Assembly: GCA_964634735.1 (NCBI GenBank)
Contig: CAZWMA010000009.1
Location: 3,378-67,377, forward strand
Length of the DNA stretch: 64,000 nucleotides
Origin: an uncultured Nitrososphaerota archaeon
GTDB lineage: Archaea > Thermoproteota > Methanomethylicia > Methanomethylicales > Methanomethylicaceae
Reading direction: 5' to 3'
Position numbers and translations under genes: made by a program. Below, piece after piece: positions 3,768-52,291 of this stretch (its first letter is position 1; each line of letters starts with the position of its first letter). The notes under the pieces were generated by a model. The model was not told where the DNA came from, made no database searches, and was given only the letters and a program-made list of their open reading frames with translations.

Positions 3768-3780
3768 TCTAACTCTGAAC

Positions 3781-3804: not shown

Positions 3805-3889
3805 AACAATTTACTATTGATTTTCACGGCACTCCAGCGTCTCAGTCTTATATTGCTGGAGCGAGAACCTGTAATCAAAGGGATCCACC

Positions 3890-6756: not shown

Positions 6757-7157
6757 TGCCAGCCCGCCGCAAGAGGGAGGGCAGGGTGCTCTTCGTTGAC
6801 ATTGCTGGCGGAAGGGGAGGGGGCATCTTGGCGATAGTCTTCCGCGGCGGGTGGATCGACTGCATAGCGGCGGTCAGGGACCCGGGCAGCGCGGACGCAG
6901 CGGCATCGTGGCTTGGGTCGCAGGGATTCATGCTGGAGGTTACAGGCATCGATGTCGGTCCAGGATTGCCGGTGGCGTGGGGAGAGGCGGAAGCCGGGAA
7001 GCTGTCCGAATGGGGCAAGTCAAGGGGATTTACGGCGTGCAAGCTAGGGAGCAGGAATGCGGCTCAGGCGCACGTGATCTCATCGGGTCTTGAAGATTAC
7101 CTCGTTCGCGACCGAATCGGGAAGGCTGCTGAGCACGGCTCGCCTGCTGACCGTTAA
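6756..7157 (+). CDS. Hypothetical protein, divergent and shortened DUF99 (endonuclease dU-like, RNase H fold)
   Basis: TGATG overlap with upstream gene; RVLFVD...AIVFRGGWIDC resembles the DUF99 N-terminus. Confidence 0.45.
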   Translation: MPARRKREGRVLFVDIAGGRGGGILAIVFRGGWIDCIAAVRDPGSADAAASWLGSQGFMLEVTGIDVGPGLPVAWGEAEAGKLSEWGKSRGFTACKLGSRNAAQAHVISSGLEDYLVRDRIGKAAEHGSPADR

Positions 7158-13131: not shown

Positions 13132-15135
13132 TCAGAGTATCTTGTAGATCGATACCCACCCGTTCGAGGAGTAGAAGACCGGCGAATACATCGTTGGCGG
13201 GTTGATGGTAATGTTCAGCAGCTGCTTGTAGCCGGTGATGTATGGATAGAAGATGAGCTGGTAGAGGGTCGTGTTTGCTGCTTTTTGGCCTATTGGGAGC
13301 ATCCAGCTGTAGCCACCGATATTCGCATACCCTACGTAATCTGCGGAATTGTAATTGATCCAGACCGCCATTGCCTGGGACTTCTCAAAGTCCCCTGTCA
13401 GGGATGTGATCGGCAGCGCCAATGCGGGGTTGGTGTACACCAATTGGAATGGCTCATAGACCACAACGTAAGTGACGTTCATCGACTTGAAGATGGCGAC
13501 GGAGGTCGTCTCGTTATTGAGGAATGCCTGGGCAACCAGTTGGATCTGCGTGCTGTTCCACGTGGAGTTGTCGTCCAAGACCGACATATTGCCCATCACG
13601 TTGATCCAGTAGCCGTAGTCCCACCAAGCACCTACTATCGTGCCCTCTGGCAGATTGTCCCTCATCCACGCCAGCGCTTCAATCCAGTCAGGTATCTCGA
13701 ATGATGCACCTGTGGAGGCTGAGACAATCATCGCAGGGCGGTTGGCGCTGCCGAGGTTATTGTACGCAACAGGAACCATCGCCGCCATTATGATGGCGAT
13801 TACCAGAATCCCGTAGTACTTGCTGAGCAGCGCACCTTTGTTCTTCTTGTCGGCTCTCTGATGGAGGACAGCCCCTACGCTAGCCATCAGCGTCGAGATT
13901 GCCAATCCAGCGACGATTGCAACCGCAGGAGCGGCCAGTATCAATAGCCTAACGAACGAACCGCTTCCATAGAGCGCGGTCAGGACGAATAGGACCATGA
14001 ATAGGTCTTCCTTGCGGCTCCTTCTTAGCGCAAAGATTATGCCGGCGGGAATCAGGAGAACCAGGACGTGATAAGTGGAGAAGAACTGGCTCCAGATGGC
14101 GGGGAACTGCTCGCCGACCGTGCTGACAGACCCCAGGCCCCCCCTTGAGAAGGGGTTGATTATCGCGAGGAATTTCCCAGTAATATCACCGAAGACGCCC
14201 ATGAGAGTCATTACTCCGAAGACGCCAAGTGTGCCCACAACTATGCCAATCGTGTATTTCTGCCTCTTGACAGCGTCAGGTATGAGCTCTGTGAAGGATC
14301 TGATCAAGCATATCACGATGGCGACTAGTGGACCCACAGTGTAAGCTGAGATTGCTGTCCCGACGCCATAGCTCGGGGTTATTATTATCGTGAAGAGCGT
14401 GATTGACGCGATGATCGAGAACGACGTTGTCAGCTGGCGGCTCCACTTTCCGGTGAGGACCATTATGACGACGAACAGCGCTATGAAGTTGAGCGGGTAG
14501 AGGAAGGCTCTCCAGCACAACGCCATATATGCCATCCCGAGCCCGGCGATAATGGCGTATGGAACGGTTCGGGTCTTGAGGGATTTGATGAAGAATAGGA
14601 GCGCAACGAACATCCCGATCAGGCCAGTGGACTCCGTGTCGAAGAAGCCAAGAGCGGTCCTCTGGATGGAAGTCGGGTCAATCGCAAATATGAATGCAGT
14701 AAGAAGGCCAACACCTCTGTTAACGAGCTGCTTGCCCAGGAAGAAGGCGAGGACGGCGATGATGGCCCCTGCGAAGACCGGGAAGAATGCGCAGACGTCC
14801 AGGAGCGGGAAGTTGAAGCCGAGGGAGGTCAGGAAGAGGTAAATGGCTGCCCCGGTAAACGGAGTCCCAAGAAGCCCCTGCTCGAACTGGTTTGCCCCCC
14901 AAGGCGCCCACCGCGTAGTGTCGACCCAGCTGTACCATGATGAGAAGCCGTTGTCGACGAGGTATTGGGCACCCTTGAACTGGATGTACGGGTCAAACTC
15001 GTCGAGGTAGACGCCCCACTGCAGCGGAAGGAGCCTGATGGCAAGGGTGAGGGCAACTATGGCGGCAAGAGCAGCGTATACCAGGACATCGGTCCGGCTG
15101 ACATTCAGCTTACGCGATGAGGCGCTTGATTCCAT
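13132..15135 (-). CDS. aglB: Oligosaccharyltransferase catalytic subunit AglB/STT3
   Basis: EFDPY, GFFDTE, WWDYG, DNSTWNST and DFEKSQAM motifs; many TM helices; GAGGT 7 nt before ATG 15135. Confidence 0.95.
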   Translation of the reverse strand: MESSASSRKLNVSRTDVLVYAALAAIVALTLAIRLLPLQWGVYLDEFDPYIQFKGAQYLVDNGFSSWYSWVDTTRWAPWGANQFEQGLLGTPFTGAAIYLFLTSLGFNFPLLDVCAFFPVFAGAIIAVLAFFLGKQLVNRGVGLLTAFIFAIDPTSIQRTALGFFDTESTGLIGMFVALLFFIKSLKTRTVPYAIIAGLGMAYMALCWRAFLYPLNFIALFVVIMVLTGKWSRQLTTSFSIIASITLFTIIITPSYGVGTAISAYTVGPLVAIVICLIRSFTELIPDAVKRQKYTIGIVVGTLGVFGVMTLMGVFGDITGKFLAIINPFSRGGLGSVSTVGEQFPAIWSQFFSTYHVLVLLIPAGIIFALRRSRKEDLFMVLFVLTALYGSGSFVRLLILAAPAVAIVAGLAISTLMASVGAVLHQRADKKNKGALLSKYYGILVIAIIMAAMVPVAYNNLGSANRPAMIVSASTGASFEIPDWIEALAWMRDNLPEGTIVGAWWDYGYWINVMGNMSVLDDNSTWNSTQIQLVAQAFLNNETTSVAIFKSMNVTYVVVYEPFQLVYTNPALALPITSLTGDFEKSQAMAVWINYNSADYVGYANIGGYSWMLPIGQKAANTTLYQLIFYPYITGYKQLLNITINPPTMYSPVFYSSNGWVSIYKIL

Positions 15136-15244
15136 TATCCCAACCTCAGAAACAAACAAATTAGTCCCACGTAGAATTTAACTCTAACGGCATTTTATTC
15201 ATCAAACAGCATTATGTATAAAGGATCGAGGAGGCGTTCAACAA

Positions 15245-17679: not shown

Positions 17680-17901
17680 TCAGCGGCCTTTCTGGAAGAT
17701 CTTAAGGAGCCCTTTCTTTTCGGGGTCCCCTATGGTTATGGTTAGCTTGGACGGGTCAAATGTCAGCGGTGTCGAGCACTTTGGGCATTTGCCCTCTGAC
17801 TTCTCGATAACCTCTTTGGGCGAGACGAGCTCAGGATCCTCATAAATGACCGCTTTACATTGATGGCATACCAGTCTGACGGGCAATAATATCACCGACA
17901 T
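17680..17901 (-). CDS. Small zinc-ribbon protein
   Basis: CHQC...GKCPKC with P.EVI spacer, typical of conserved TACK small proteins. Confidence 0.75.
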   Translation of the reverse strand: MSVILLPVRLVCHQCKAVIYEDPELVSPKEVIEKSEGKCPKCSTPLTFDPSKLTITIGDPEKKGLLKIFQKGR

Positions 17902-18415
17902 CCTTGTAAGGGTTCAGCTCTCCGATGAGGTCGAAACCTTTCTTAGCTAAAGATTCGAACCATATCTCGGAAGCGAGTATTAGATAAGGTTCGGTTGCTT
18001 TTAAATAATTCTCGCCAATCTCCCTTTGGGACTGGTCCATTATGGCTTCGATATATGCTGACGCCTGGCGGACGTCGGAGAGGTAGCAAATCACAGTTCG
18101 CCTTGACCGGAGAAGAGCATGCGACTCTTCGATGTTGAACCCGAGGCTGATTCGCCCCTTCCAGTTGCCTGCCAAGAAGAGTACCGCGCCTCCGACCACG
18201 AATATCTCCGCCAAAGGGGATGACGCCTGAAATGATAGCGTGTGGTCCAGCGCAAAGACCACTCCAGCAATGCCTGTGACGAAGATGCCCACCATTCCAA
18301 CCGCAGCTCGCCTAATCTTTGCGTCAGTCCAGAGCCGGTCAGCGAAGGCGGCGTCGTAGAATATCGAGAGCGAAAGAAGGATGAACTTGGATTTTATTGC
18401 CTTCAGTGGTTGCAT
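17855..18415 (-). CDS. Hypothetical membrane protein
   Basis: 186-aa ORF filling the gap, two hydrophobic segments; no family recognised. Confidence 0.55.
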   Translation of the reverse strand: MQPLKAIKSKFILLSLSIFYDAAFADRLWTDAKIRRAAVGMVGIFVTGIAGVVFALDHTLSFQASSPLAEIFVVGGAVLFLAGNWKGRISLGFNIEESHALLRSRRTVICYLSDVRQASAYIEAIMDQSQREIGENYLKATEPYLILASEIWFESLAKKGFDLIGELNPYKDVGDIIARQTGMPSM

Positions 18416-18475
18416 AAGCCAGGACAGGATTAATAGTCATAGCAGGCGTAATAAAGTTTGATACGAGTGGGTCTG

Positions 18476-20584
18476 ATGGTCAAACAGCTCATCATCTGCG
18501 AGAAGCCATCTGCCGCATTGAAGGTAGCTTATGCCCTGGGCGAAGGCGGCGTGAAGAGGGTAGGGAGCAGATTCTTCCCTGCCTATAGCTTCTCAAGGGG
18601 GGCTCACACGGTCACAGTCATCTCCGCGCTCGGCCACCTCTACTCGGTGGACCAGAAGAGCATTGGGTGGAGCTACCCCGTCTTCGACATCAGCTGGGTG
18701 CCGATATACGAGGCTGAGAGAAGGATGACGAGGGCGAAGGGCTGGATCGCCGCAATCTCAAAGTATGCAGCCGAGGCGGACGAGTTCGTGAGCGCTTGCG
18801 ACTTCGACACAGAGGGCAGCCTGATAGCATTCAACATCCTTAGGTATGCATGCGGCGGGGCGGATGCGAAGGCGAAGCGGATGCGATTCTCTACGCTGAC
18901 GAAGCAGGACCTTGTTGCTGCTTACGAGGGGATGTCAAAAGAACTCGATACGCCTGTCATTGAGGCGGGTCGGACGAGGCACGAGCTTGACTGGATATTT
19001 GGAGTCAATGCGTCCCGTGCCCTCATGGACTCTCAGATAATGGCCGGTGGCGGGTATGAGGTCCTGAGCGCCGGGAGGGTCCAGAGTCCGACGCTTTACG
19101 CGCTGTATAGGAGGGAGAATGGCATCAAGCTCCACGTGCCCGACCCCTATTGGGTTATCATTGCAGAGGCGGAGATAGCGGGTGAAGGGCTTCCTGCGGA
19201 GTACGCAGAGGGGGAGATTCTCTCGCGCAAGGAGGCAGAGGGGATAGTCCAGAGGTGCAATGGGGCAGAAGGAATTGTGAGCAGCGTCTCGGATAAGAGG
19301 ATGATCATGCCCCCTCCAGCGCCATTCGACTTGGGCGCCTTGCAGTCTGAGGCATTCAAACACTTCGGGCTTTCCCCATCAAAAACGCAGAAGATTGCGG
19401 AGAAGCTGTACTTGGATGCGCTGATATCTTACCCCAGAACGTCCAGCCAGAGGCTGCCCCCGTCGCTTGGTTACGCCCGGATAATGCAGGCGCTGAAGAG
19501 GAATGGGCATTATGCGGACGCCGTTGATGAGCTCCTGATGAGCGGAAAGCCACTCAGACCAAGGGAGGGGATGAAGTTCGATCCGGCTCACCCTGCGATA
19601 CATCCGACTGGCAACCTCGCTGAGAGACTGGGGAGGGATGAGTTCAGGGTTTACGACCTCATTGTAAAGAGGTTCCTCGCTACGTTCGGGGAGGAGGCGA
19701 TTAAGGCTCTGACCTCGATCGAGATATCATGCGGAGGTGCGGATGCGTTCATTGTGAAGGGCGAGGCGGTCCTAAGCGAGGGTTGGACGAGGCTCTACGC
19801 ACCGTACGCATTCCTCAGAGAGACCAAGGTTCCTGCCACCATGAAAGGGGATCAGGCAAGGATGACTTCGGTAACGTGTGATGAACGGTACACTGCCGCT
19901 CTGCCTAGGTTCAACCAGAGCAGCATCATAAAGTTCATGGAGAGGAACGGCCTTGGCACAAAGTCAACGAGGGCGGACGCCGTGGAGACGCTTTACAGGC
20001 GCGGTTACATCGAGGGTGGGAGGATAGAGGTGACTGACCTTGGGGCAGGCGTCATTGCCGCGCTCAAGGAGCACTTCCCCCGCCTTGTCTCAATTGACCT
20101 GACGAGGAAGGTGGAGGAGGGCATGGAGGGGATAGAGGGCGGGAAGATGAGCAGGGAGCAGGTCATGCTGAACGCGATTGATGAGATGAAGGCGACCTAC
20201 GAGAGGATGATGGATGGGCAGGAGGGGCTGGGCGCTAGCCTCGCCGAACTCGTAAAGGTCAAGAAAGACGATGCGAAGACCGTCGGGCAGTGCCCATCAT
20301 GCAAGACGGGAAGGCTGATAATGATAAGGTCTAAGAAGAGCGGCAAGCGGTTCGTGGGATGCTCAAGGTATAGCGAGGGGTGCAGGTTCGCGGCTCCGCT
20401 CCCCCAGAGGGGGAGGGTCACGACGTCGAAGAGGACCTGCAAGGACTGCGGGTATCCGGTTGTTGAAGTCAGGGGATTGGGGAGGTATGTTTGGAGGTTG
20501 TGCATAAATGTCGAGTGCCCGGGGAAGAGGAAAAATGGGAAGGGAAACGAAAACGGGGAAGATAGCGCCAAGCAAAGCGAGTGA
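18476..20584 (+). CDS. topA: DNA topoisomerase type IA (archaeal TopA/Topo III-like)
   Basis: TOPRIM EKPS and D.DTEG, SAGRVQSPTL, catalytic LISYPRT, AHPAIHPT, GLGTKSTR, C-terminal zinc ribbons. Confidence 0.96.
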   Translation: MVKQLIICEKPSAALKVAYALGEGGVKRVGSRFFPAYSFSRGAHTVTVISALGHLYSVDQKSIGWSYPVFDISWVPIYEAERRMTRAKGWIAAISKYAAEADEFVSACDFDTEGSLIAFNILRYACGGADAKAKRMRFSTLTKQDLVAAYEGMSKELDTPVIEAGRTRHELDWIFGVNASRALMDSQIMAGGGYEVLSAGRVQSPTLYALYRRENGIKLHVPDPYWVIIAEAEIAGEGLPAEYAEGEILSRKEAEGIVQRCNGAEGIVSSVSDKRMIMPPPAPFDLGALQSEAFKHFGLSPSKTQKIAEKLYLDALISYPRTSSQRLPPSLGYARIMQALKRNGHYADAVDELLMSGKPLRPREGMKFDPAHPAIHPTGNLAERLGRDEFRVYDLIVKRFLATFGEEAIKALTSIEISCGGADAFIVKGEAVLSEGWTRLYAPYAFLRETKVPATMKGDQARMTSVTCDERYTAALPRFNQSSIIKFMERNGLGTKSTRADAVETLYRRGYIEGGRIEVTDLGAGVIAALKEHFPRLVSIDLTRKVEEGMEGIEGGKMSREQVMLNAIDEMKATYERMMDGQEGLGASLAELVKVKKDDAKTVGQCPSCKTGRLIMIRSKKSGKRFVGCSRYSEGCRFAAPLPQRGRVTTSKRTCKDCGYPVVEVRGLGRYVWRLCINVECPGKRKNGKGNENGEDSAKQSE

Positions 20585-20798
20585 GAGGTGCCAGATCTGC
20601 GCCAAGGCAGCCGGCGGAGAGCTCTGCGAGATACATGTGGAGGCAAAGAAGAGGCTGGAGAAGCACTTTGAGGTGTGGAAAGCCCGCATGGACATCGGCT
20701 GGCAGGAGTATTTAGTGAAGGTGCAATCCAACCCCAATACCGGTTCGGCAATCAGGGATGCGGCGGCTTTTGCGCTCAAGGCTCAAGGCTCAAGGTGA
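20535..20798 (+). CDS. Small conserved hypothetical protein (C-x2-C...C-x2-H) downstream of topA
   Basis: CQIC...LCEIH..A...L...F..WK......W.EYL....NP.TG; overlaps the topA end; start uncertain. Confidence 0.65.
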   Translation: MGRETKTGKIAPSKASERCQICAKAAGGELCEIHVEAKKRLEKHFEVWKARMDIGWQEYLVKVQSNPNTGSAIRDAAAFALKAQGSR

Positions 20799-22255
20799 GC
20801 AGAGTATAAGTCCATAGCGCGCATGCCCTTCTTGATTGGGGCAGAGAGGTCTTCGATTGAAGAAGCGGTCTTCTTGGCGAAGAGCTTCCTCTCGTCGAGC
20901 ATCCTCCTCACTTCCTTGACCGCGGGACCGCCCGTTGTCGTCCTGACGTTTACATTCTTTAGTGGGTCTATTGCGGCAGCTATGGAAGCCTCCCTGATGC
21001 GAACGCCTGCCTTGGCAAAGACCATGGCAGCGATGTCAGCGGCAGGCTCTTCGGACAGCGATTTTGAAGCATCGGAGAGATCCCTCACTATTGCACCAAC
21101 CACCTGGTGCGCTTTCCTGAACGGCAAGCCACCCGCCCTCACGAGCACGTCTGCGAGCTCAGTAGCGACTGAGAAGTCGTCCATGACGCTCTGCTTGAGG
21201 CGCTGCTCCCTGAAGTTTACTTTACGTACCAGGTCAGCCATGACCCGGAGCGAGAGCAGGGCTGCGTCGCATGCGCGCCAGATGTGAGGATTGACCTCCT
21301 GCATGTCGAGGTTGTACGTCAACGGGAGGGACTTCATGATGATAGTCATGGCAGCCAGCTCTCCGAATACGTCTCCGCTCTTTGCCCTCATGATCTCGGA
21401 GGTGACTGGATTCTTCTTTTGAGGCATTATGCTGCTCGTCGAGGAGTGATCGTCGGGCATCTCCAGGTAACCGAACTCGTGCGAGCTCCAGATGACCAGT
21501 TCCTCCGCCATCCGGCTCATGTCGACCATCATTATCGAGAGCGACGAGACTGCCTCGAGCGCGAAGTCCCGCGACCCTACGGCGTCCATTGTATTTTCCA
21601 ATAGACCGTCAAAGCCCAGGTAGCTTGCGACGAGGGCACGGTCTATCGGGAATCCAGTGCCTGCCAAGGCTGCTGCGCCCATCGGAGACAGGTTTACACG
21701 CTTGTAGCAGTCGATCATCCGGCTGAGGCTCCTGCCGAACATGTCGCTGTACGCAAGCAGGTGAAGGGCGGCGCTCACTGGCTGGGCGTGCTGCAGGTGC
21801 GTGAACCCTGGTACGATGATATCGGCGGACGCCTCGGCCTTGTCGTTCAGCGCAACCTGGAGGTCGGATATCCGGCAGCATATCTCGATAAGGTACGAGC
21901 GGAGGCGCATCCGGAGTGCAGTTGCGACCTGGTCGTTCCTGCTCTTGCCGGTGTGCATCTTTCCCCCAATCTCGGCACCTACAGCCTTCGTGACCTCCTC
22001 TTCGATGACCATGTGGACGTCCTCCATCTCTGGCGGGACGGCAGTTATCTTGCCGATGAGGGGTTTAAGCGCGTTTACGAGCGCCTTGCCTTCCGCGGGG
22101 GTAAGGCAACCTACCTTCACAAGCATGAGGGTGTGGGCGATGTTGATCTTGATTACATCGTCTGCGATGTAGTGGTCGTGTTCAGATGATGAGGTAAGCC
22201 TGGCCACATCCGCGGTCAGGTCCCCCGATAGCCGCCCCCCACGAGTGATCTTCAT
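20783..22255 (-). CDS. argH: Argininosuccinate lyase
   Basis: EDVHM, HTGKSRNDQV, PGFTHLQHAQP, SSIMPQKKNP; start moved to ATG 22255. Confidence 0.97.
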   Translation of the reverse strand: MKITRGGRLSGDLTADVARLTSSSEHDHYIADDVIKINIAHTLMLVKVGCLTPAEGKALVNALKPLIGKITAVPPEMEDVHMVIEEEVTKAVGAEIGGKMHTGKSRNDQVATALRMRLRSYLIEICCRISDLQVALNDKAEASADIIVPGFTHLQHAQPVSAALHLLAYSDMFGRSLSRMIDCYKRVNLSPMGAAALAGTGFPIDRALVASYLGFDGLLENTMDAVGSRDFALEAVSSLSIMMVDMSRMAEELVIWSSHEFGYLEMPDDHSSTSSIMPQKKNPVTSEIMRAKSGDVFGELAAMTIIMKSLPLTYNLDMQEVNPHIWRACDAALLSLRVMADLVRKVNFREQRLKQSVMDDFSVATELADVLVRAGGLPFRKAHQVVGAIVRDLSDASKSLSEEPAADIAAMVFAKAGVRIREASIAAAIDPLKNVNVRTTTGGPAVKEVRRMLDERKLFAKKTASSIEDLSAPIKKGMRAMDLYSAHLEP

Positions 22256-22280
22256 GCAAGGCACCCTTAATCCAATGCGC

Positions 22281-23492
22281 TCATTCTTTCTTCTTCGACC
22301 GCAGCATGACCTTGTTGGAGACCACCGTTGGCAGCCCCCAGAGAGGCACGAATCCGTTTGAGAGTGTCTGGTCGAATGTCGAAGAAGAGTCATATGTTGC
22401 GGTCTTGAAGTCGTATACAGAGTTCGGGGACTCCCTGCCGCAGACAATCATCGAGCCCTTGTAGAGCTTGACCTTGACCCGGCCATCAACGCGTTCGTTG
22501 GACTTGTCTATGAAGGCGTCGAGCTCTTCGCGGAGCGGATCGTCCCACAGACCGGCGTAAACCATAAAGGTCCACTTGTCGTCTACGAACTTCTTGAACT
22601 CCTGCTCGTGCCTGTTGAGGACAAGTTTCTCGAGGTCGCGGTGAGCTTCCAGCAGCACCAGCGCCGCCGGGCACTCGTATGTCTCGCGGGACTTGATGCC
22701 GACGATGCGGTCCTCCATGTGGTCTATCCTGCCCACGCCGTTGTCCCCAGCAATCTTGTTGACCTTACGGATGAGGGGCACCGGCGCCATGCGCTCGCCA
22801 TCGAGTGCTATTGGGACGCCATTCTTGAACGTAATCTCGAGGATGGTAGGCTTGTCCGGCGCATTTTCAGGCGATTTGGTCCAGAGCCAGCCGTCTTCCT
22901 GCGGCTCGTTCCACGGGTTCTCGAGCGGTCCGCTCTCAATCGACCTGCCCCACAGGTTCTCGTCGATGCTGTACTTCTTGGCAGCCTTCGAGATTGGGAT
23001 GCCGGCGTTCTTCGCGTACTCGATCTCTTGGTCCCGGCTCATTCCCCAATTGCGAGTGGGGGCGAGGATGGTAAGCGTCGGATCCTGTGCTCTTGAGGAT
23101 ATCTCGATGCGTAACTGGTCGTTGCCTTTCCCCGTGCAGCCGTGTGCAACAGCGTCGCAGTTCTCCTTGTGGGCAATCTCGACTAGCTTCTTTGCGATGA
23201 GAGGTCTAGTGAGGGATGTCGATATGGGGTATTTGCCCTGGTAGATACCGTTCGCCTTGATTGAGGGGAAGAGGTAGTCCCTTGCAAACTCGTCCTTTGC
23301 ATCTATAGTGTAATGGTTCTCGGCGCCGACTTTCAAGGCTTTATCTCCTACGAACTTGAAGTCGTCCTCCTGGCCGACGTCCACGGTAACCGTGATTACC
23401 TTTGCGTTGTACTTGTCGGCGAGCCACTTCATTGCAACAGAAGTGTCTAAACCGCCCGAATAAGCGAGAGCTATTCTCTTGATTTCAGCCAC
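22281..23492 (-). CDS. argG: Argininosuccinate synthase
   Basis: LAYSGGLDTS, HGCTGKGNDQ.R, SIDENLWG, E.R..GIKSRE.YE.P; GGTGA before GTG. Confidence 0.97.
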   Translation of the reverse strand: MAEIKRIALAYSGGLDTSVAMKWLADKYNAKVITVTVDVGQEDDFKFVGDKALKVGAENHYTIDAKDEFARDYLFPSIKANGIYQGKYPISTSLTRPLIAKKLVEIAHKENCDAVAHGCTGKGNDQLRIEISSRAQDPTLTILAPTRNWGMSRDQEIEYAKNAGIPISKAAKKYSIDENLWGRSIESGPLENPWNEPQEDGWLWTKSPENAPDKPTILEITFKNGVPIALDGERMAPVPLIRKVNKIAGDNGVGRIDHMEDRIVGIKSRETYECPAALVLLEAHRDLEKLVLNRHEQEFKKFVDDKWTFMVYAGLWDDPLREELDAFIDKSNERVDGRVKVKLYKGSMIVCGRESPNSVYDFKTATYDSSSTFDQTLSNGFVPLWGLPTVVSNKVMLRSKKKE

Positions 23493-23725
23493 TTTTATCA
23501 CCTATTCAATATCCCTTAACATTTCGCAAAAAAAAGGTTGCTAAACGTTTACTTATAAGTATTCTCTTTAGAGAGCATTAGTTTTTTGGTATAAAAAATT
23601 GTTTTTAATTAGCAGTCGAAATGCCAGCCCTAGTTATTCTAACCGACCGCTTGACAAGGCATAGGTTTGGCAAGGTTAAGGGAGACCTGATTTGACCCCT
23701 CGAACCCATCCTTGCCATCGCACAG

Positions 23726-24493
23726 TCAGTGATAGGTGTGCTCTTGGGCGGGATATTGACCGTTTTTCACCTCTCGTTTGAAAGCATCAACGGAATTCGA
23801 GATTATTTTGCTCAGGTCGGCATACTTCTTGACATACTTGGGCGTGAAAGTTGGGTCGAGCCCAAGCAGATCATTTATCACCAAGACCTGACCGTCGCAG
23901 TATTTACCTGCCCCGATCCCAATGGTTGGAGCCCGAACAGCTTCCGTAATCTCTTTCGCCAAACCTTCCGGCATTGACTCAAGGACCATGGAGAAGACTC
24001 CCAATTCGTCCAGGTGTATGGCATCCTCAAGGATTTTTTGTGCGTCCTCAGGCGTCTTCCCCATTACTCGGTAGGTCGCAGCGGTCTGTGGCAGGAGCCC
24101 GATATGGGCCATCACCGGGATGCCGTTTCCTATCAGGGTCTTTATCGCCTCGGTTTTTCGCCCTTCGATTTTAACCCCTTCAGCCCCTGCTCCCAGAAGG
24201 CGACGGGCATTCCTGAGGGCGCCGGATTTGGTGGAGTCGCTCTTGAAGGGCATATCCGCGACTATTGGCGTCTTTTTGGCACCCCTGGCAACGGCTTGGG
24301 TATGATAAAGCATGTCGCGCATTGTTACATTCCTGGTTTCTGCGTTCCCCTGAAAGACCATTCCAAGGCTATCCCCGATCAAGATAATATCAATTGCAAC
24401 TTGATCGATTATTTTGGCGATTTGACTGTCATAGGCAGTCAGCATGACTATCTTCTCTTTGCCTTTCCAATCCCTAAACTCGTTGAGTTTCAT
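23726..24493 (-). CDS. panB: 3-methyl-2-oxobutanoate hydroxymethyltransferase
   Basis: MLTAYD, GDSLGM, ADMPF, VKIEG, HIGLLPQ, IGIGAG..CDGQVLV..DLLG. Confidence 0.97.
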   Translation of the reverse strand: MKLNEFRDWKGKEKIVMLTAYDSQIAKIIDQVAIDIILIGDSLGMVFQGNAETRNVTMRDMLYHTQAVARGAKKTPIVADMPFKSDSTKSGALRNARRLLGAGAEGVKIEGRKTEAIKTLIGNGIPVMAHIGLLPQTAATYRVMGKTPEDAQKILEDAIHLDELGVFSMVLESMPEGLAKEITEAVRAPTIGIGAGKYCDGQVLVINDLLGLDPTFTPKYVKKYADLSKIISNSVDAFKREVKNGQYPAQEHTYH

Positions 24494-25380
24494 CTTTGAG
24501 CCTCCATGAATCTAATCAGCTCCACCATCGTTTCGTTCACGGGTACCCTGATGCCGTATTTTTCCCCAAGTTCAATTATCTTTGCGTTGAGGAAGCCAAT
24601 CTCGGTGGCCTTGCCTTTCATTATGTCCTGGTACATCGAAGAGTAATTTTTATAGTTCATTATTCTGCGATCGGTGTCAGCTTCTAGGTCGTCGCCGAAA
24701 TGAACCCCTTCAACTTCTGCAACAGATGCGCACTCGCGCATGAGCGAGCGCCTCGTCGCGCTCAGGCCTGGTGCGCCTACCTCGTTATCCCTGACCTTTA
24801 GGATTGCGGATAATGGATTTACAATGCAATTGATGAGCATTTTGTTCCATTCGTGTCTCCTGATATCCGAGGTAATTTTGGTTTCCAGACCGCTATTTTC
24901 GAATAAAGCTTGGATTGCCTTCCCATTCTTCGTTTTTTCCATTATCGTGGGACCTTTCCAATACGTGACTTTTCCCGGCTCCAGAAACTCCGCTGCCATT
25001 AGGACCACCCCCCTGACCACATTTGCTTTTTCGGCGATAGCCTCCAAGATTAGCTCTTTTATCCCCAGCCCGTTTTGCAAAGCCAGCAAGACGGTGTCAC
25101 TCCTCAATATCGGCAGTAGTGCTTCACAGGCCTTTGCAACATCCTGCGCTTTCATGGTTAAGAGTATCAATGAATTTTCTGGAACGTCGGATATGGCGGT
25201 CTTTGCATTTAAATGAAAAATGCCCTTGAGGTCGCCGTCGATAATCAACCCCTTGGAGTTGATGGCGCCAACGTGGGACGGGTTGCCAACCAATGTTACA
25301 TCGTTCTTTCTTGATAATAATGCGCCATAGCAGCTGCCAACAGCCCCAGCGCCCATTATGAAAATCTTATGAAATGTCAT
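24490..25380 (-). CDS. panE: 2-dehydropantoate 2-reductase
   Basis: GAGAVG, LQNGLG, W.K..INC..NPL, SSMYQD..KG..TEI..LN. Confidence 0.93.
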   Translation of the reverse strand: MTFHKIFIMGAGAVGSCYGALLSRKNDVTLVGNPSHVGAINSKGLIIDGDLKGIFHLNAKTAISDVPENSLILLTMKAQDVAKACEALLPILRSDTVLLALQNGLGIKELILEAIAEKANVVRGVVLMAAEFLEPGKVTYWKGPTIMEKTKNGKAIQALFENSGLETKITSDIRRHEWNKMLINCIVNPLSAILKVRDNEVGAPGLSATRRSLMRECASVAEVEGVHFGDDLEADTDRRIMNYKNYSSMYQDIMKGKATEIGFLNAKIIELGEKYGIRVPVNETMVELIRFMEAQR

Positions 25381-25439
25381 TTTCATTTTCTCCAAGATCC
25401 CAGGTATGCCCGTTCCATCAGGTTGGTGCCCGCATCCAT

Positions 25440-26216
25440 TCAATCGCACTTCTCTTTAGCGAGGGTAGTCAGCCGATCCCTGATGAAAATGATTACATCG
25501 GAGAGGTTCTTCTTGTTGCTGAAGCCCGAAAGGGCTGCCTTCAAGGATGCATTGTCGAGGCGCTTCATCTCGCGGATGGCGCGAGTGACGCTGGGGACCG
25601 CCCGAATCACATTGTCGACGATCGTTATGTCAGCGGCTTGGGCTGTCCTCGAGAGTGGGTTGAGGTCGATGGTGATTATGAACTTGCCCATGCGCTTCAG
25701 TGCTTCAGTCCGGTCGCCGTCCTCCAGCGGAACTACGACTACATCGGCTTTGTAGATGCCCTCGGGATCGACAATCCTCCTGTCGCTGAACAACTCAGGT
25801 ATCGACTCCTTCTTTGAGCCTAAGCCGAGGACTGATGTCGCACCAGCATTCAAGAGAGCTTTGCGTATGGCAAGCTCCCGCTTCCTCGTCCTGTAGAAGA
25901 GGTTGACCTCAAGTGGGGCGCCAGAGATCTTCGAGAGCTCGACCAGCGCCTCGGGGACGAGTGCGGTCATATTTCCGTTGACTGATATGACCGGGTGCGA
26001 TGCCAACAAGAGCGACGCCGCTGCGGCGCGTGCTGCAAGGAATGCATGAGGTATGGATTCCTCCCCGAGGAGGTAGTCAAATGCCTCCCCACGGCCGTGG
26101 GCTATGAGACCAGCCTTTGCGACGACAGAGTTCTCCTCGGCATCAATCAGCTTCTCCCTGACCCTTAGAGATTCAGCCCTTGAATGGTTTTTTGGTATCT
26201 TCAAATGCGTTCCCAT
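25440..26216 (-). CDS. pps: 4-phosphopantoate--beta-alanine ligase (phosphopantothenate synthetase)
   Basis: H.RA.SL..RE, GLIAHGRGEAFDYL.GE, VPLEDGDR, IDLNPLSRT. Confidence 0.95.
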   Translation of the reverse strand: MGTHLKIPKNHSRAESLRVREKLIDAEENSVVAKAGLIAHGRGEAFDYLLGEESIPHAFLAARAAAASLLLASHPVISVNGNMTALVPEALVELSKISGAPLEVNLFYRTRKRELAIRKALLNAGATSVLGLGSKKESIPELFSDRRIVDPEGIYKADVVVVPLEDGDRTEALKRMGKFIITIDLNPLSRTAQAADITIVDNVIRAVPSVTRAIREMKRLDNASLKAALSGFSNKKNLSDVIIFIRDRLTTLAKEKCD

Positions 26217-27205
26217 CAAAATGCCCCTCCTTTTGCAATCTCGGTTATGATAAGATTGATCCCGTTGGAGCCATGCAGGACCAGTGGCAATGGCTCATCA
26301 GGGGCGGGCATCGCGGACCCGAGCTTCCTGACGACTGATCCAAGCTCATCGCGATTTATGATTCCAAAGACCATGCCCTTCTTTACAGAAGGATGCTTCA
26401 CTCCGGCGTTCTCGAAGAGCCTCAATGCGGCGAGCATGCGCTGCTCCTCGATGCCTACGCCCATCCAAAAGAGGCGCGACTGGAGCATAAGGTTCTCGAT
26501 GTTCGGGCAGTCCATGAATGCGCCCATGGCCTTCGCGCCGAGCATGTTTATTTTGTCCACGTACCGTGGGGATGTAATCATGGTCTTTGTAGGGAACTTG
26601 ACTACCGGCGCAGTTACGACGACCATCCCTTCTGGGCGGGGCAGACTGCGGACCTCTCCAAGGCCTGGCGCACCTGGCCTCAGCCTGACCTCGATCCCGC
26701 CAGCGAGCTGAGCCGTCACGTCCCCGAGCCCAGTCAGGAGCGCCACTTCGGCCTTGTGCGCGAATTGGCCGACCTCATTCATCGAGAGGCGCAGGTCTGC
26801 AGCCTTGTTGATCGCAATCGCTAGGCTGAGCGCGGATGCGCCACTGAGTCCGTACCCATAGTTGGGGGGGAGGGCGGATTCCTGTTCTGCCACGACCGAA
26901 AACTCGCTCCCGAAGCTAGCATTCATGGACTTAACGAGGAAATTGCAGGTCGGCACGGATGGGAGCGCCCTCCCGTTGAAGGAGAGGTGAAGCGGTTTCT
27001 TCCTTGATGATGAAGGCCGGATGGTGACCCTTGTGTGGACCCCTTCCTCGAGGCAGATTCCTGCTCCGGTCGATCCTGTGAGCATCGGGTCGTTCGTCAT
27101 GTGTATGCTGAAGAATGCAGTAATGTGTCCTGGCGAGTAGCCTTCTCCGACCATGCAATCGAGGATTGAGGCTGCGATGCCCCTGCTGAGCATCGTGCTG
27201 CTCAT
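26216..27205 (-). CDS. pok: Pantoate kinase (GHMP family)
   Basis: PGHIT.FF, GSTGAG, P..YGYGLSGA, E....TGLGDV; true start may be downstream. Confidence 0.9.
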   Translation of the reverse strand: MSSTMLSRGIAASILDCMVGEGYSPGHITAFFSIHMTNDPMLTGSTGAGICLEEGVHTRVTIRPSSSRKKPLHLSFNGRALPSVPTCNFLVKSMNASFGSEFSVVAEQESALPPNYGYGLSGASALSLAIAINKAADLRLSMNEVGQFAHKAEVALLTGLGDVTAQLAGGIEVRLRPGAPGLGEVRSLPRPEGMVVVTAPVVKFPTKTMITSPRYVDKINMLGAKAMGAFMDCPNIENLMLQSRLFWMGVGIEEQRMLAALRLFENAGVKHPSVKKGMVFGIINRDELGSVVRKLGSAMPAPDEPLPLVLHGSNGINLIITEIAKGGAF

Positions 27206-28449
27206 TGCCTGGACTCCCTGCTTGAGTACGCGTCGAGTATCTGGCGCGCAACCTCGCGCTTATGCGAGAGCGGGACGCGGTGGAAGAGCCCGCTGCGGTC
27301 GATGAGGTAGACCTCGTTCGTCTCGGATTCGAACCCGCGCCCTGCTTTGGAGAGGTCGTTCGCCGCGATTAGGTCCATACCAGAGTCGGTGAGTCGGGCT
27401 AGTGCGCGCTGGATGAGCTCTTCTTCGGGGAGATCATACTCCGCCTTGAAGCCGATTATGAATAGCATTGGGGAAGCGTTCCGTGCAGCCCGGGATATCT
27501 TCGGCAGTGGGGAGAGCTTGAGGCTGAGCACCGAGTCGCTCGATATCTTGCCGTTTTTCCGCCTGCTGAATGCGAAGTCGAGGGGAGCCGCGGCGAGAAT
27601 CAAGGCGTCGTAATGCCCCGATTTGAGCTCGGAGAGGACCGCGTCAAGCATCTCCTCCGTCGTGGAGACGCGCGTGACGGGGATCCCGGGCAACTCGGGT
27701 ACCGAGACTGGCCCTGCTACGAGCCTGACCTCGGCGCCCCTTGCGGATGCCTCCAGGGCAAGGGCGAAGCCCATCTTCCCAGAGCTGGAGTTGGTCAAAT
27801 ACCTGATAGCGTCCATGTAAGACCGGGTCGAGCCGGCAGTGATCAGAATCCGCTTGCCCTTCAGGTCCTTCTTTGCGAGCGCCGCAAGCGCAGCCTCGAC
27901 GATCCTCTCGTTGCTTGCAATCTTTGCCTTTCCCTCCGCCTGCTCTGGGGCAAGGACGGTAATCCCCATGGCCTCGAGCCGCTTCATGTTCTCGACGACT
28001 GCGGGATGGCGCATCATACTGGCATGCATCGCAGGGGCGACTATCATCGGAATGCCAGCGCCTATGGCAGTGGTCGCGAGAGAGGTAACCGGCGTGTCAT
28101 CTATGCCCAAGGCTATCTTGCTGACGGTGTTTGCAGTAGCCGGGGCGATTATAACGAGATTGGCGCTCCCGTCGCAGCCGCCCCCCAGGGCAACATGCTC
28201 TATCTTGCCTGTCAGGGAGGTCACCACTGGATTCCCGGTTGCCCATTCCATAAGGTCGGGGGTGATAAGCGATTGGGATGCGGCGGACATCACCGCGAAG
28301 ACCTCGGCGCCGTGCCTCATCAGGCCCCTTGCGAGGTCAGGGGACCGCACAGCGGCGACGCTGCCGCATAATGCCAATGCGATGCGCTTGCCCGCGAGAA
28401 GCCGGCTTGTGGCGCAGATTATGTCCTTTGAAGGGTGAATGCCCAACAC
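27202..28449 (-). CDS. coaBC: Bifunctional phosphopantothenoylcysteine decarboxylase/ligase
   Basis: GSVAA, EH..LG, APATANT..KIA.GI.D, PAMH, ITAG.T...D..RY.TN.SSGKMG, GFKAE. Confidence 0.96.
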   Translation of the reverse strand: MLGIHPSKDIICATSRLLAGKRIALALCGSVAAVRSPDLARGLMRHGAEVFAVMSAASQSLITPDLMEWATGNPVVTSLTGKIEHVALGGGCDGSANLVIIAPATANTVSKIALGIDDTPVTSLATTAIGAGIPMIVAPAMHASMMRHPAVVENMKRLEAMGITVLAPEQAEGKAKIASNERIVEAALAALAKKDLKGKRILITAGSTRSYMDAIRYLTNSSSGKMGFALALEASARGAEVRLVAGPVSVPELPGIPVTRVSTTEEMLDAVLSELKSGHYDALILAAAPLDFAFSRRKNGKISSDSVLSLKLSPLPKISRAARNASPMLFIIGFKAEYDLPEEELIQRALARLTDSGMDLIAANDLSKAGRGFESETNEVYLIDRSGLFHRVPLSHKREVARQILDAYSSRESRQ

Positions 28450-28618
28450 CTCTTCTACAAGAGGACCGAGGTCGCTTATGTAATTTATGTATGTATAACC
28501 CATAATGTGTATTTTTTCAATAATATACATAAAATATGTTCGAATAGGCAAACGGCGCTCCAAAACATTTAAAGATTTGCGGAGGCGTTTAGATGATTAT
28601 TGTGATCCGGTGGTCAAG

Positions 28619-28981
28619 ATGGACTTTAACATCATCCCGAAGAAGTATTACGCCTACATCGCAGCCATTGCATCGATCTTCCTGACTAGCGGCGGAATAT
28701 ACGTCTTGATTATGCAACCGGGAGCGGCAATCCAGATTAGCAGTGTCGTCAAGTTCTTGATACCTGCAAGCGTATCGTCGATGAGCATGACATCGACGGA
28801 GTTCTTGGTTTCAATCTTTCTTTCGTTAGCCGGGATGGCGGGATTCGTACTGCTTGACAGGGCGCTCCAGAGGAGCTTTGACCTCAACGGTTCGAAGATG
28901 CAGTATGTGATTGCGGTTTCGCTGATTGTCATCGCAATAATCGTATTCGAGTTCATGGTCAATGCAAAAACGACCGGATAG
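28619..28981 (+). CDS. OST3/OST6-family (DC2/OSTC-like) oligosaccharyltransferase subunit
   Basis: Three TM helices; FLTSGGIY.LI..P, EFLVS.FL...G..GF.LLDR and terminal K..G parallel eukaryotic DC2/OSTC as recalled. Confidence 0.72.
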   Translation: MDFNIIPKKYYAYIAAIASIFLTSGGIYVLIMQPGAAIQISSVVKFLIPASVSSMSMTSTEFLVSIFLSLAGMAGFVLLDRALQRSFDLNGSKMQYVIAVSLIVIAIIVFEFMVNAKTTG

Positions 28982-29141
28982 CGGAGAGCCGGTCAGCCAT
29001 TTTTAACGGTTGAACTCTATAATTGCAAGCGAAGGACTATGCGCCAACAAAGCGCAGAGCTGTTTGCATGCGAATTGAGGCGATGTAAGGGCAAAGTTTT
29101 ATTCATGTGAGATAAAGTGTCAAGATGGAGGCGATGCCCCC

Positions 29142-29541
29142 GTGGACCATGTCAGAGCTTTTGATATCCCTGTCAACGATATGAGAAGGGCAAAGAGGTT
29201 CTACGAGAAAGCCTTTGGCTGGCAGATTCGCCCAGTTCCTGGCAGCGGAGGCGATTTCCACGCAGCAAATACGGCACCGGTCGACGAGAATGATGAGCTA
29301 CAGATCCGCGGGGCAATTAATGGCGGCTTCTTCAGGAGGGGTACTCATGACCTGAAGGAGACTTTCCTTGAAGTCAATGTTCAGTCCATTGACGAGTGTC
29401 TCAAGAAGATATTGGAAGAAGGCGGTCAATTGATGACCTAAAGCTCCAATATTGGATATCGCGTTCTTTGCAGTGATCAAAGATACTGAAGGCAATGCCG
29501 TAGGACTCTGGGAAGACGTGAAGAGAGAGCGCCATCGATAA
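29142..29541 (+). pseudogene. VOC/glyoxalase-family protein split by a frameshift at ~29437
   Basis: F.IP..D..RA..FY...FGW and GAINGG in one frame to TAA 29439-29441; expected C-terminus PKAPI...FA.IKDTEGN.VGLWE continues in the +1 frame to TAA 29541. Confidence 0.85.
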
Positions 29542-29744
29542 TCGCCTATTGACAAACAATCGCCTATCGCGTTTTTTTTGTAATGGTTGCAGAATTACTG
29601 AATTTTGGGGACAAATTATTCGCTATTGAAAATGCGCAGCATAAGAAAGCAGCCTAAAAAAACAATACGAATGGGGCATGACCATTGGAGATTAACCAGT
29701 GAGCACAAGGCAATCAAGTGGCGTTTGATAACTTGGAGATGCGC

Positions 29745-30227
29745 TTACCACGGGTACTGCTTCAGCTTAAGCAGGTATGCAAATACGTTCGCGACAAGAT
29801 GAATCGGCGGCGTCACTATCAGCAGGAAGAGCGCTTGCTCCGGGGCATACTGGTAGACGGGGTACACGAATGCCAAGGCGCCAACGACGAAGTCTATCTG
29901 GTCAAGGACTGGCGCAGGCTTCCCTCTGGCTATCCCGAGCCGCCTCTTTATGAATGCACCAACCATATCGCCGCAGAGCGCCCCAAGGGAGAGCAGGAAT
30001 GACTCTAGCGGGTATCCGAATATGGCACCGGATAGGGTGCCCATAGCTAACCCCGCCAAGAACCCCTCGATCGTCTTTCCGTCCCCGAGTATTCTCTTGC
30101 CGTCCCACAGGTTCTTGCCCCGGTCGATGGGCCGCTTGCCTCTGGCGAGCACGGGGACGGAGTTTGCAATGAACGCGGGTGCGATCAGCACGAATGACAT
30201 GAAAACCATTTGCAGCAGATCGTTCAT
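29745..30227 (-). CDS. carS: CDP-archaeol synthase (DUF46)
   Basis: PA..AN..PV, PID.G....DG.RILGDGKT.EG, GD..GAFIKRR.G..RG...P.LDQ.DF. Confidence 0.93.
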   Translation of the reverse strand: MNDLLQMVFMSFVLIAPAFIANSVPVLARGKRPIDRGKNLWDGKRILGDGKTIEGFLAGLAMGTLSGAIFGYPLESFLLSLGALCGDMVGAFIKRRLGIARGKPAPVLDQIDFVVGALAFVYPVYQYAPEQALFLLIVTPPIHLVANVFAYLLKLKQYPW

Positions 30228-30919
30228 ACCGGGCTATCACCCATCCCTTCTAAACCTAACTGTGTAACTTTTATTAATGCGTCACCCTTGGATGGGGGCT
30301 TCGTGGCGGTTGCCTTTCGCACGTTCCCAGTGAGCTTCTCGAGGCGGACGGCGCGATTCGCCCAGTAACCGAGAATCCTGTACGCGACAGGCTGGACGGC
30401 AAGGCTGTTGAGCTGTGCCCTGACATCGCTCGTTAGCATGACGAAGAGCCCCATCTCCTTTGCTGCGGACTTGAGGAGGGCAAGCTGCCGGCTGAAGGAC
30501 TTGTTTATTGAGATGTTCTCATCGTGCTCCCCCAGCTTGGCTCTGTACAGGGAGGTTATCGTGTCGACTACCAGAAGGGCGGTTCCGGGAGGGATCTGGG
30601 AGTGCAGCGCCTCCAGTATAGCGTCCTGCTCCTCGTAGGTCTTGACTTCGAGCAGGTAGCACCTGTCCCCGACCGACTGCCATGAGGTGCCCGCGATCTC
30701 CATGAGGCGCTCAACTGGAGCCCTGCCTTCGGTGTAGAGCATTGTTGCCTTTAGGCCGCGGCGGGCGGCGCCGACCATCGACTGGAAGGCAAGCGAGGTC
30801 TTTCCGGATCCACGTTCCCCGAAGAAGAGCGCGATCTCCCCCAGGCTAAGGCCTCCGCCCATGATGGAGTCAATGGCAGGGCACCCGGTGCTCATGCTTT
30901 TAATAACATTGTCCGCCAA
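30224..30919 (-). CDS. radB: DNA repair protein RadB
   Basis: STGC..ID..MGGG, Walker A GERGSGKT, LLVVDTIT; no N-terminal HhH domain, unlike RadA. Confidence 0.85.
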   Translation of the reverse strand: MADNVIKSMSTGCPAIDSIMGGGLSLGEIALFFGERGSGKTSLAFQSMVGAARRGLKATMLYTEGRAPVERLMEIAGTSWQSVGDRCYLLEVKTYEEQDAILEALHSQIPPGTALLVVDTITSLYRAKLGEHDENISINKSFSRQLALLKSAAKEMGLFVMLTSDVRAQLNSLAVQPVAYRILGYWANRAVRLEKLTGNVRKATATKPPSKGDALIKVTQLGLEGMGDSPV

Positions 30920-49831: not shown

Positions 49832-50110
49832 ATGTTCTTGAAGAGAAGGCTCATGGACATCCTTGCATGCCCGATATGCAAAAATCATCCTCTGGAACTC
49901 CTAGCTTTTGAGGAGAAAGAAGAGATTGAGGAAGGGATGCTTCTGTGCGGAAGCTGCGGAAGGTGGTATCCGATCATCGAGACCATACCGCATATGCTGC
50001 CGGATGACCTCAGGGACGTTGCAGAGGACAAAGGTTTCTTGATCAAGTGGGGTAAGAAGGTTCCTGAGCGCGTATCGAAGAACGGAAAGCCGTTCAATCT
50101 AGTTGAATGA
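49832..50110 (+). CDS. trm112: Trm112-family methyltransferase activator
   Basis: KRRLMDILACP.CK..PLEL, IEEG.L.C..CGRWYPI...IP.MLPD. Confidence 0.9.
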   Translation: MFLKRRLMDILACPICKNHPLELLAFEEKEEIEEGMLLCGSCGRWYPIIETIPHMLPDDLRDVAEDKGFLIKWGKKVPERVSKNGKPFNLVE

Positions 50111-50196
50111 AGGTACAGCAGAACTTTGAAAAGAAGGAAAATTAAGAAGAGGAAAGCGAAGGCTTTCCCTGAACTATTGAATGAAAGAAAAAGAGA

Positions 50197-50340
50197 TTAC
50201 TTTTTCTTATCACATTTCTGGCAATGAATCTCTCCATTAGCTAACATTGTGCCTTCCTCACCGAATGGTGGGCGATGGCAGATATAGTATGTGCTACCAG
50301 ATGGAGTCTTATAGGTCTCAAACAGCGTGCATTGCGGCAT
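50197..50340 (-). CDS. 47-aa Cys/His-rich small protein (absent from ORF track)
   Basis: MPQCTLFETYKTPSGSTYYICHRPPFGEEGTMLANGEIHCQKCDKKK; GGAGGTG 8 nt upstream; U-rich tract after the stop. Confidence 0.6.
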   Translation of the reverse strand: MPQCTLFETYKTPSGSTYYICHRPPFGEEGTMLANGEIHCQKCDKKK

Positions 50341-50467
50341 TTAACTTACACCTCCGAACATATCGACATTCCTAAAAAATGGAGCTACTATATAAAGATT
50401 GTTTGTCCTAGGTTCTGTAAAGTTGCCGGTTGGTTGGACCCGTTGTAAAAAAACGGTGGGTAAGGCA

Positions 50468-51571: not shown

Positions 51572-51603
51572 ATTTATAGGAAGGGTTTTCTATGAATTTA
51601 AAC
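51572..51603. promoter_or_regulatory. 32-bp bidirectional promoter for two leaderless genes
   Basis: TTTATA (51573-78) centred ~28 nt before ATG 51604; TTTAAA (51597-602) centred ~28 nt before minus-strand ATG 51571. Confidence 0.55.
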
Positions 51604-52278: not shown

Positions 52279-52291
52279 TAAGGTCTGAAGC

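Follow-up and report, generated by a model that had tools for sequence, protein, structure and literature searches.

Non-catalytic subunits of the oligosaccharyltransferase (OST) are counted among the "eukaryotic signature proteins" and are used in arguing the origin of the translocon and the glycosylation machinery of the endoplasmic reticulum. One of them, DC2, has three transmembrane (TM) helices with a cytosolic N-terminus and a lumenal C-terminus (Ncyt-Clum), whereas Ost3p and Ost6p feature a signal peptide, a thioredoxin domain and four TM helices (Nlum-Clum) (PMC6761772). DC2 resembles TM2-4 of Ost3p, and its site on STT3A is the one that Ost3p takes on Stt3 (PMC6761772). Prokaryotic homologues of the non-catalytic subunits were not found by Lombard (2016). 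Later work reported homologues of Ost1 and Ost3/6 in Asgard archaea, and Carilo et al. (2024) mentioned in one sentence OST1 and OST3/6 in eukaryotes, TACK and Asgard archaea, and treated the Asgard protein of strain MK-D1 (QEE15371.1, Ca. Prometheoarchaeum) as lacking a signal peptide (PMC11417166). Here, we analysed 64,000 nucleotides of archaeal DNA (contig CAZWMA010000009.1; the whole stretch is referred to as the window), in which a small gene at 28619-28981 codes for a DC2/OSTC-like membrane protein that probably serves as a partner of the catalytic subunit AglB.

Homology to OST3/OST6 and DC2

The gene under study is the following:

28619 to 28981, plus strand: gene of a DC2/OSTC-like (OST3/OST6-family) membrane protein, 120 amino acids (aa) (open reading frame, dN/dS, profile searches, Foldseek)

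This open reading frame (ORF) starts with ATG at 28619 and ends with a TAG stop codon at 28981, exactly where a preliminary description of this DNA had placed it, and the three peptides quoted there are all found in its translation, namely IFLTSGGIYVLIMQPG (aa 20-35), TEFLVSIFLSLAGMAGFVLLDR (aa 60-81) and VNAKTTG (aa 114-120). These peptides had been paired by eye with human DC2, and HMMER reproduces all three pairings (FLxxGGxIY..P, the TM2 block and the terminal K with MRMKL).

Taken alone, the window protein reached 6.2 bits (E 7.9) against the Pfam family OST3_OST6 (PF04756), with residues 8-115 aligned to model positions 181-283 of 294. Among 177,635 distinct PDB sequences only two matched at E<=10, human and canine OSTC (E 0.09 and 0.15), and a scan of the 120-aa protein against NCBIfam gave no match. 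For eight of its nine closest homologues, a PF04756 match at E<=10 was obtained, the best with E 1.4e-6, and nine of the scanned family members attain at least the gathering score of 27 bits, i.e., P0012 (50.2 bits, E 3.2e-13), P0022 (50.1 bits) and P0021, P0014, P0017, P0024, P0008, P0010 and P0023 (27.6-33.9 bits). The alignments of family members cover approximately positions 170-294 of the 294-position model, which correspond to the C-terminal membrane part. With 40% identity to the window protein and E 1.6e-26 against the profile of the latter's subfamily, P0012 is a close relative; together with its own Pfam match, this provides a short homology chain to PF04756. In the search that had been suggested as a check, the family thus matches OST3_OST6, while the single sequence is borderline; neither of the two outcomes named beforehand as refuting, a missing profile hit or a deviating topology, was observed.

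Four profiles were used, representing the Methanomethylicus subfamily built from the close homologues (A1), 25 family sequences (A2), the wider family (A3) and the Bathyarchaeia subfamily (A4). Profile A2 aligned with the full length of human OSTC (residues 29-143 of 149, E 2.3e-15, 59.7 bits) and with the last three TM helices of MagT1 (residues 208-325, E 7.5e-9, 38.6 bits). With A3, OSTC reached E 2e-15 and 59.9 bits and MagT1 30.4 bits; A4 matched OSTC (E 9.3e-7, 32 bits) and gave no match to MagT1. The similarity of the family profiles to OSTC is far beyond chance. Yeast Ost3/6 went undetected at E<=1 by all three of these profiles. A direct comparison of A1 with A4 by hhalign yielded 98% probability over 108 columns (E 2e-13). 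Moreover, the positions that are invariant or nearly so among 25 members (F21, G25, G26, E61, G72, G75 and K117) align with FLITGG, MEG, GGLG and MRMK of OSTC.

Since relatives and profiles match, family membership can be regarded as settled, the single sequence itself lying below detection: on the grounds of these alignments, the protein is a genuine, strongly diverged member of the OST3/OST6/DC2 family. The family goes unannotated because some of its members score too low for Pfam, which already recognises about half of the relatives in Bathyarchaeia. In agreement with the earlier remark that the protein is hidden as a hypothetical, all named relatives but one carry the label "hypothetical protein". 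The exception, "YidH (DUF202 family)" assigned by JGI to the orthologue P0004, is probably a mis-annotation, as DUF202 matches were sub-threshold (E 0.02-0.1) and limited to two distant members.

Predicted fold and topology

Based on the alignment of 25 sequences, the best AlphaFold2 model reached a pLDDT of 88.3 and a pTM of 0.74. It comprises three long helices (residues 8-32 with a kink, 59-84 and 89-119), and the first loop forms a short hairpin. A Foldseek search of the PDB with this model returned OST subunits exclusively on ranks 1-9, with DC2 first, and unrelated proteins (E > 2) from rank 10 onward. The DC2 chains 9N9J_J, 8B6L_J, 8PN9_H and 6S7O_H showed query-normalised TM-scores of 0.66-0.77 at 16-24% identity in the structural alignments; the other matches were MagT1 (6S7T_H), yeast Ost3p (8AGC_H, 8AGE_H, 6EZN_C) and Ost6p (7OCI_C). 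The predicted fold is consequently the three-helix fold of DC2 and of TM2-4 of Ost3p. The parts of the protein were assigned as follows:

28649 to 28714, plus strand: predicted TM1, about aa 11-32, with the FLTSGG-Y motif (hydropathy, AlphaFold2 helices 8-23 and 26-32, alignment)
28715 to 28795, plus strand: predicted extracytoplasmic loop 1, about aa 33-59, poor in K and R (AlphaFold2, K+R content of the family)
28796 to 28858, plus strand: predicted TM2, about aa 60-80 (alignment, AlphaFold2, hydropathy)
28859 to 28900, plus strand: predicted cytoplasmic loop 2, about aa 81-94, rich in K and R (K+R content of the family)
28901 to 28963, plus strand: predicted TM3, about aa 95-115, followed by the invariant K117 (alignment, AlphaFold2, hydropathy)

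Among the 25 members, G25 is invariant and F21 and G26 are nearly so in TM1, which is aligned with FLITGGIIY of DC2; in TM2, E61 and G75 are invariant and G72 is nearly invariant, and K117 is aligned with the K of MRMKL in DC2. The hairpin of loop 1 is predicted from two short strands (residues 38-40 and 43-45). On average over the family, K and R together number 4.4 in the N-terminus, 1.2 over the 25 residues of loop 1, 3.4 over the 14 residues of loop 2 and 1.2 in the C-terminal tail. By the positive-inside rule, this distribution therefore assigns the N-terminus and loop 2 to the inner side of the membrane and the C-terminus to the outer side. The three-helix topology anticipated in the preliminary description is borne out by three hydropathy peaks, and the predicted N-in/C-out orientation equals the Ncyt-Clum arrangement of DC2.

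The absence of a thioredoxin domain, which had likewise been claimed, holds as well: the protein has 120 aa, and only 115 bp lie between its gene and the divergently oriented coaBC. Its sequence contains no cysteine, no extramembrane domain and no signal peptide, TM1 starting at about residue 11. The listed TACK relatives, with lengths of 120-185 aa, are all too short for a thioredoxin domain. Judged from these sequences, the missing domain looks like the general archaeal state and would by itself be no sign of a translocon-bridging function.

Relatives and selection

For the window gene and four orthologous loci, dN/dS values of 0.13-0.22 were obtained (Nei-Gojobori), and purifying selection is therefore acting on the protein. 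Nine close homologues with 53-100% identity and 118-124 aa were found in public data. A HMMER scan of 1.84 billion representative proteins with profile A1 gave 16 clusters at E<=1e-3, all of 114-156 aa, and at least 302 relatives were reached with profile A3. The closest genome records belong to Candidatus Methanomethylicus mesodigestus, Ca. Methanomethylicus oleisabuli and a metagenome-assembled genome labelled "Nitrososphaerota archaeon" (64-66% identity). Remoter members are labelled Methanomethylicia/Verstraetearchaeota, Nezhaarchaeales and Thermoprotei, and Bathyarchaeia are represented in large numbers. The family is thus widespread in Bathyarchaeia, Methanomethylicia and Nezhaarchaeales.

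The labels of the nearest relatives and the archaeal housekeeping gene content of the window assign the host to the Methanomethylicia within TACK (Thermoproteota), as a relative of Ca. Methanomethylicus. This content includes Pus10, KsgA, L10e, diphthamide synthase, PCNA, primase, GINS, eIF2-alpha, NAD kinase, topoisomerase I, ArgH and CoaBC, as well as pantoate kinase, CarS, RadB and XPD; ArgG and the pantothenate genes were named from homologous loci.

Cognate AglB and genomic context

The window also carries a gene for the catalytic subunit AglB/STT3. Against the PDB, its product scored best with human STT3A (E 7.8e-70, 239 bits), followed by STT3B (193 bits) and yeast Stt3 (192 bits), and euryarchaeal AglBs matched through their C-terminal domains only (E 1e-4 to 1e-7). 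The motifs read from the translation are WWDYGYW and, further on, a double sequon, DDNSTWNST. Such a double sequon has been reported for eukaryotic STT3 and for TACK/Asgard AglBs (PMC8993221). At the sequence level, the window AglB is strikingly eukaryote-like. The features of the surrounding locus are:

13132 to 15159, minus strand: AglB/STT3, catalytic oligosaccharyltransferase and presumed partner (PF02516, E 4.8e-31)
18458 to 20798, plus strand: topoisomerase I and a small zinc-ribbon ORF (20508-20798), synteny markers and not functional parts (Pfam scan, locus comparison)
28504 to 28618, without strand: A+T-rich divergent intergenic region of 115 bp between coaBC and the DC2-like gene (sequence and gene call on the identical contig L005)
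29745 to 30227, minus strand: CarS, convergent neighbour, synteny marker only (ORF and homologous loci)
30224 to 30919, minus strand: RadB, convergent neighbour, synteny marker only (ORF and homologous loci)

To describe the linkage of the two genes, 98 related loci, fetched via profiles A1 and A4, were searched with STT3, topoisomerase I, CarS, RadB, eIF2-alpha and CoaBC of the window. The common arrangement is STT3(-), at some distance topoisomerase I(+), a small zinc-ribbon ORF(+), the DC2-like gene(+), CarS(-) and RadB(-), a deeply conserved block common to Bathyarchaeia and Methanomethylicia (e.g., L010, L028, L031, L035, L039, L051 and L057). In 18 of the 33 loci having at least 8 kb of upstream sequence, STT3 is found no more than 10 kb upstream, at a typical distance of about 4 kb. 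A Bathyarchaeia subgroup (L016, L017, L019, L020 and L029) carries the gene 435-593 bp from STT3 in divergent orientation, and neither a topoisomerase I nor a CarS match was obtained on these loci. The link to STT3 is hence kept where the other neighbours are absent, and of all available arguments this persistence speaks most strongly for a functional connection.

Within the window, the block is interrupted: minus-strand genes for arginine, pantothenate and CoA biosynthesis occupy about 7.8 kb (20783-28563) between the zinc-ribbon ORF and the DC2-like gene. The zinc-ribbon protein (68-96 aa, soluble, CxxC .. C.H) was found at 20508-20798 (+) of the window, where its ORF overlaps the end of the topoisomerase I gene, and at L001:1880-2086, L010:7685-7945, L018:6769-7017 and L057:9760-9987; in most relatives, the DC2-like gene follows it immediately. 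This cysteine-rich protein had no Pfam match. The small ORFs neighbouring the gene in relatives were considered as Ost4/Ost5-like candidates and rejected, being soluble, cysteine-rich zinc-ribbon proteins. CarS, which like RadB is a convergent neighbour of the DC2-like gene in almost all relatives, was likewise considered as a functional partner via lipid-carrier chemistry; its proximity is mere synteny, the gene being convergent and giving no match in the STT3-adjacent subgroup.

A separate observation concerns the Bathyarchaeia locus L057, in which a polytopic membrane protein of 289 aa is encoded directly downstream of STT3 (2962-3831, minus strand). Judged by eye, this protein looks like an AglH/Alg7-type GlcNAc-1-P transferase; if so, the region would be an N-glycosylation locus.

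Upstream of the DC2-like gene, the divergent coaBC corresponds to an ORF at 27202-28563, and gene calls on the identical contig L005 set its start at window position 28503. An in-frame ATG at 28505, which would extend the DC2-like protein by 38 residues to 158 aa, was discarded as a start codon, because the proteins of homologues start where 28619 lies and the gene calls likewise favour 28619. The intergenic region contains TTTAAA at 28568-28573, about 46-51 nt 5' of the ATG and similar to a TATA box, and GGTGGT at 28609-28614, 5 nt 5' of the ATG and similar to a Shine-Dalgarno sequence; these elements may represent promoter and ribosome-binding site, respectively. The spacer between the DC2-like gene and CarS (28982-29744) measures 764 bp in the window vs. 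about 74 bp in L001-L004. It contains an ORF of 99 aa (29142-29441), whose first approximately 34 residues match the N-terminus of glyoxalase/bleomycin-resistance proteins and which may be a short VOC-family gene or the remnant of an insertion.

Proposed role and alternative explanations

We consider it probable that the protein acts as a non-catalytic membrane partner of the eukaryote-like AglB/STT3 at the DC2/Ost3 site. This role is inferred because in solved structures DC2 is found on STT3A, MagT1 on STT3B and Ost3p/Ost6p on Stt3. The protein would dock on the TM domain of AglB, at the site taken by DC2 on STT3A and by TM2-4 of Ost3p on yeast Stt3, and the archaeal oligosaccharyltransferase would then be an enzyme of at least two subunits. 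As it lacks a thioredoxin domain, no oxidoreductase activity is possible; its contribution could rather be structural, e.g., by stabilising or positioning AglB or by linking AglB to another membrane machine.

Several observations weigh against this proposal. At the level of family membership, the window protein itself stays below the gathering score of PF04756 (6.2 vs. 27 bits), and high confidence was obtained for the best AlphaFold2 model only, the other four reaching pLDDT values of 68-74. Regarding the link to AglB, 15 of the 33 loci contain no STT3 within 10 kb upstream, and the linkage seen in the others is partly inherited synteny, as the loci are phylogenetically related and thus non-independent. 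In the window, 13.5 kb with unrelated housekeeping genes separate the two genes, which lie on opposite strands, and neither further OST subunits nor SecY were detected among the 50 window ORFs scanned against Pfam.

A more specific, and in our view doubtful, possibility is that the protein tethers AglB to the translocon: one face would contact AglB and TM1 and TM3 would contact SecYE-beta, allowing glycosylation during translocation. Such a function is suggested by the DC2 precedent, since TM1 and TM3 of DC2 touch Sec61 and the opposite face binds STT3A (PMC6761772). The modelled architecture and topology are those of DC2 and not of Ost3/6, OSTC outscores MagT1 with all three archaeal profiles compared while yeast Ost3/6 escape them, and the best-scoring counterpart of the cognate AglB is STT3A, the isoform that associates with the translocon. 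However, the higher score of OSTC may reflect only shared length and loop structure, and the missing thioredoxin domain is non-discriminating, as it is missing from all listed TACK homologues. Moreover, neither the scanned window ORFs nor the examined gene tables of related loci showed a SecY, KCP2-like or ribophorin-like gene, and yeast Ost3p sits at the same Stt3 site, yet the yeast enzyme is uncoupled from the channel (PMC6761772).

Very unlikely, in our judgement, is a true homologue that acts independently of AglB, e.g., in the handling of cations (Mg2+) as once proposed for MagT1/TUSC3, or in a different membrane function. The Pfam description "OST3 / OST6 family, transporter family" and the invariant charged E61 at the start of TM2 would fit such a function, as would the genomic setting, given that the gene is not adjacent to AglB in the window and that its most constant neighbours are CarS and RadB and not glycosylation genes. 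However, CarS is convergent and so not co-transcribed, and the STT3 linkage persists in the Bathyarchaeia subgroup without a CarS or topoisomerase I match. The homologous domain is an STT3-bound OST subunit in all solved structures that were recovered, and a three-helix monomer is unlikely as a transporter.

That the ORF is spurious, or its likeness to OST subunits a chance similarity of hydrophobic segments, finds some footing in the non-significant single-sequence statistics (Pfam E 7.9, PDB E 0.09) and in the frequency of compositional matches among membrane proteins, but is already refuted by purifying selection, synteny conserved across classes, full-length profile E-values of 1e-13 to 1e-15, family-conserved motif positions that are those common to DC2, and a structural search topped by OST subunits only, and has practically no probability left.

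Significance

Homologues of OST3/6 in TACK archaea are already in print (PMC11417166), and the advance is in this respect incremental. In our full-text literature searches, we did not find descriptions of a three-helix, DC2-like architecture as the general form in TACK archaea, of the better match to DC2 than to Ost3/6, of the conserved STT3 linkage, of the Methanomethylicia subfamily escaping Pfam or of the spread over Bathyarchaeia, Methanomethylicia and Nezhaarchaeales. The DC2-sized, thioredoxin-less homologue presents itself as a conserved core gene across several TACK classes that travels with a eukaryote-like AglB, and hundreds of "hypothetical proteins" could gain a name. If the protein pairs with AglB as proposed above, the two archaeal genes would further form a simple system for studying the purpose of the DC2/Ost3 site on STT3 and the possible antiquity of the coupling to the secretion channel.

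DC2 is usually viewed as a late addition that is specific to metazoa and plants. A speculative and rather unlikely extension of our findings would reverse this view: the common ancestor of TACK, Asgard archaea and eukaryotes would have had an STT3A-like AglB together with a DC2-like subunit tethering it to SecYE-beta, with DC2 as the ancestral and Ost3/Ost6/TUSC3/MagT1 as the derived form. If true, translocon-coupled N-glycosylation would be older than eukaryotes and even than Asgard archaea, and Ost3/Ost6/TUSC3/MagT1 would be eukaryotic derivatives that gained the first TM helix and the thioredoxin domain.

Further observations in the window

Apart from the locus described above, a low-GC island was observed at 50001-53464, with a GC content of 0.357 at 50-52 kb vs. 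about 0.55 elsewhere. Its ORFs 50468-51571 (-) and 51592-52278 (+) had no Pfam match, and an IS240-type DDE transposase (52574-53464, -) adjoins them; by these features, the island is probably mobile or foreign DNA. Additional candidate genes of 186-424 aa without a Pfam match at the thresholds used are located at 58014-59288 (-), 57134-57820 (-), 6585-7157 (+) and 17855-18415 (-).

Comparison with known systems

Among the described proteins, mammalian DC2 (OSTC; e.g., 6S7O_H, 6FTG_3 and 8B6L_J) is the closest counterpart. The two proteins are similar in size (120 aa for the archaeal protein, 149 aa for DC2) and share three TM helices, an Ncyt-Cout(lumen) topology, which is predicted for the archaeal one, and the lack of both a thioredoxin domain and a signal peptide. 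They also have in common the sequence blocks FLxxGG(I)Y..P in TM1, E..GxxG in TM2 and the K after TM3, and DC2 is the best match of the family profile in sequence as well as the best match in structure. The archaeal protein differs in its shorter TM1-TM2 loop, in having no known KCP2 partner and in its setting, since in an archaeal host it would reside in the cytoplasmic membrane with the SecYE-beta channel instead of Sec61. Furthermore, binding to STT3 and to the channel has been shown for DC2; for the archaeal protein, the former is proposed and the latter doubtful. The protein shares ancestry with the OST3/6/DC2 family as a whole, within which the higher scores of OSTC might reflect a specific orthology to DC2.

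With Ost3p/Ost6p and TUSC3/MagT1, the archaeal protein shares the homologous membrane domain and the same predicted fold (6S7T_H, 8AGC_H, 7OCI_C). In contrast to these proteins, it has no signal peptide, no lumenal CxxC thioredoxin domain and no counterpart of their first TM helix; consistently, the MagT1 alignment begins at residue 208, after the first TM helix of MagT1, and the archaeal protein has three helices and not four. Its sequence similarity to this group is weaker than to DC2. Compared to the OST3/6 homologues reported from Asgard and TACK archaea, finally, the window protein stands out by belonging to a Methanomethylicia subfamily too diverged for Pfam, but it agrees with them in the essential arrangement, i.e., an OST3/6-family protein occurring beside a eukaryote-like AglB in an archaeon.

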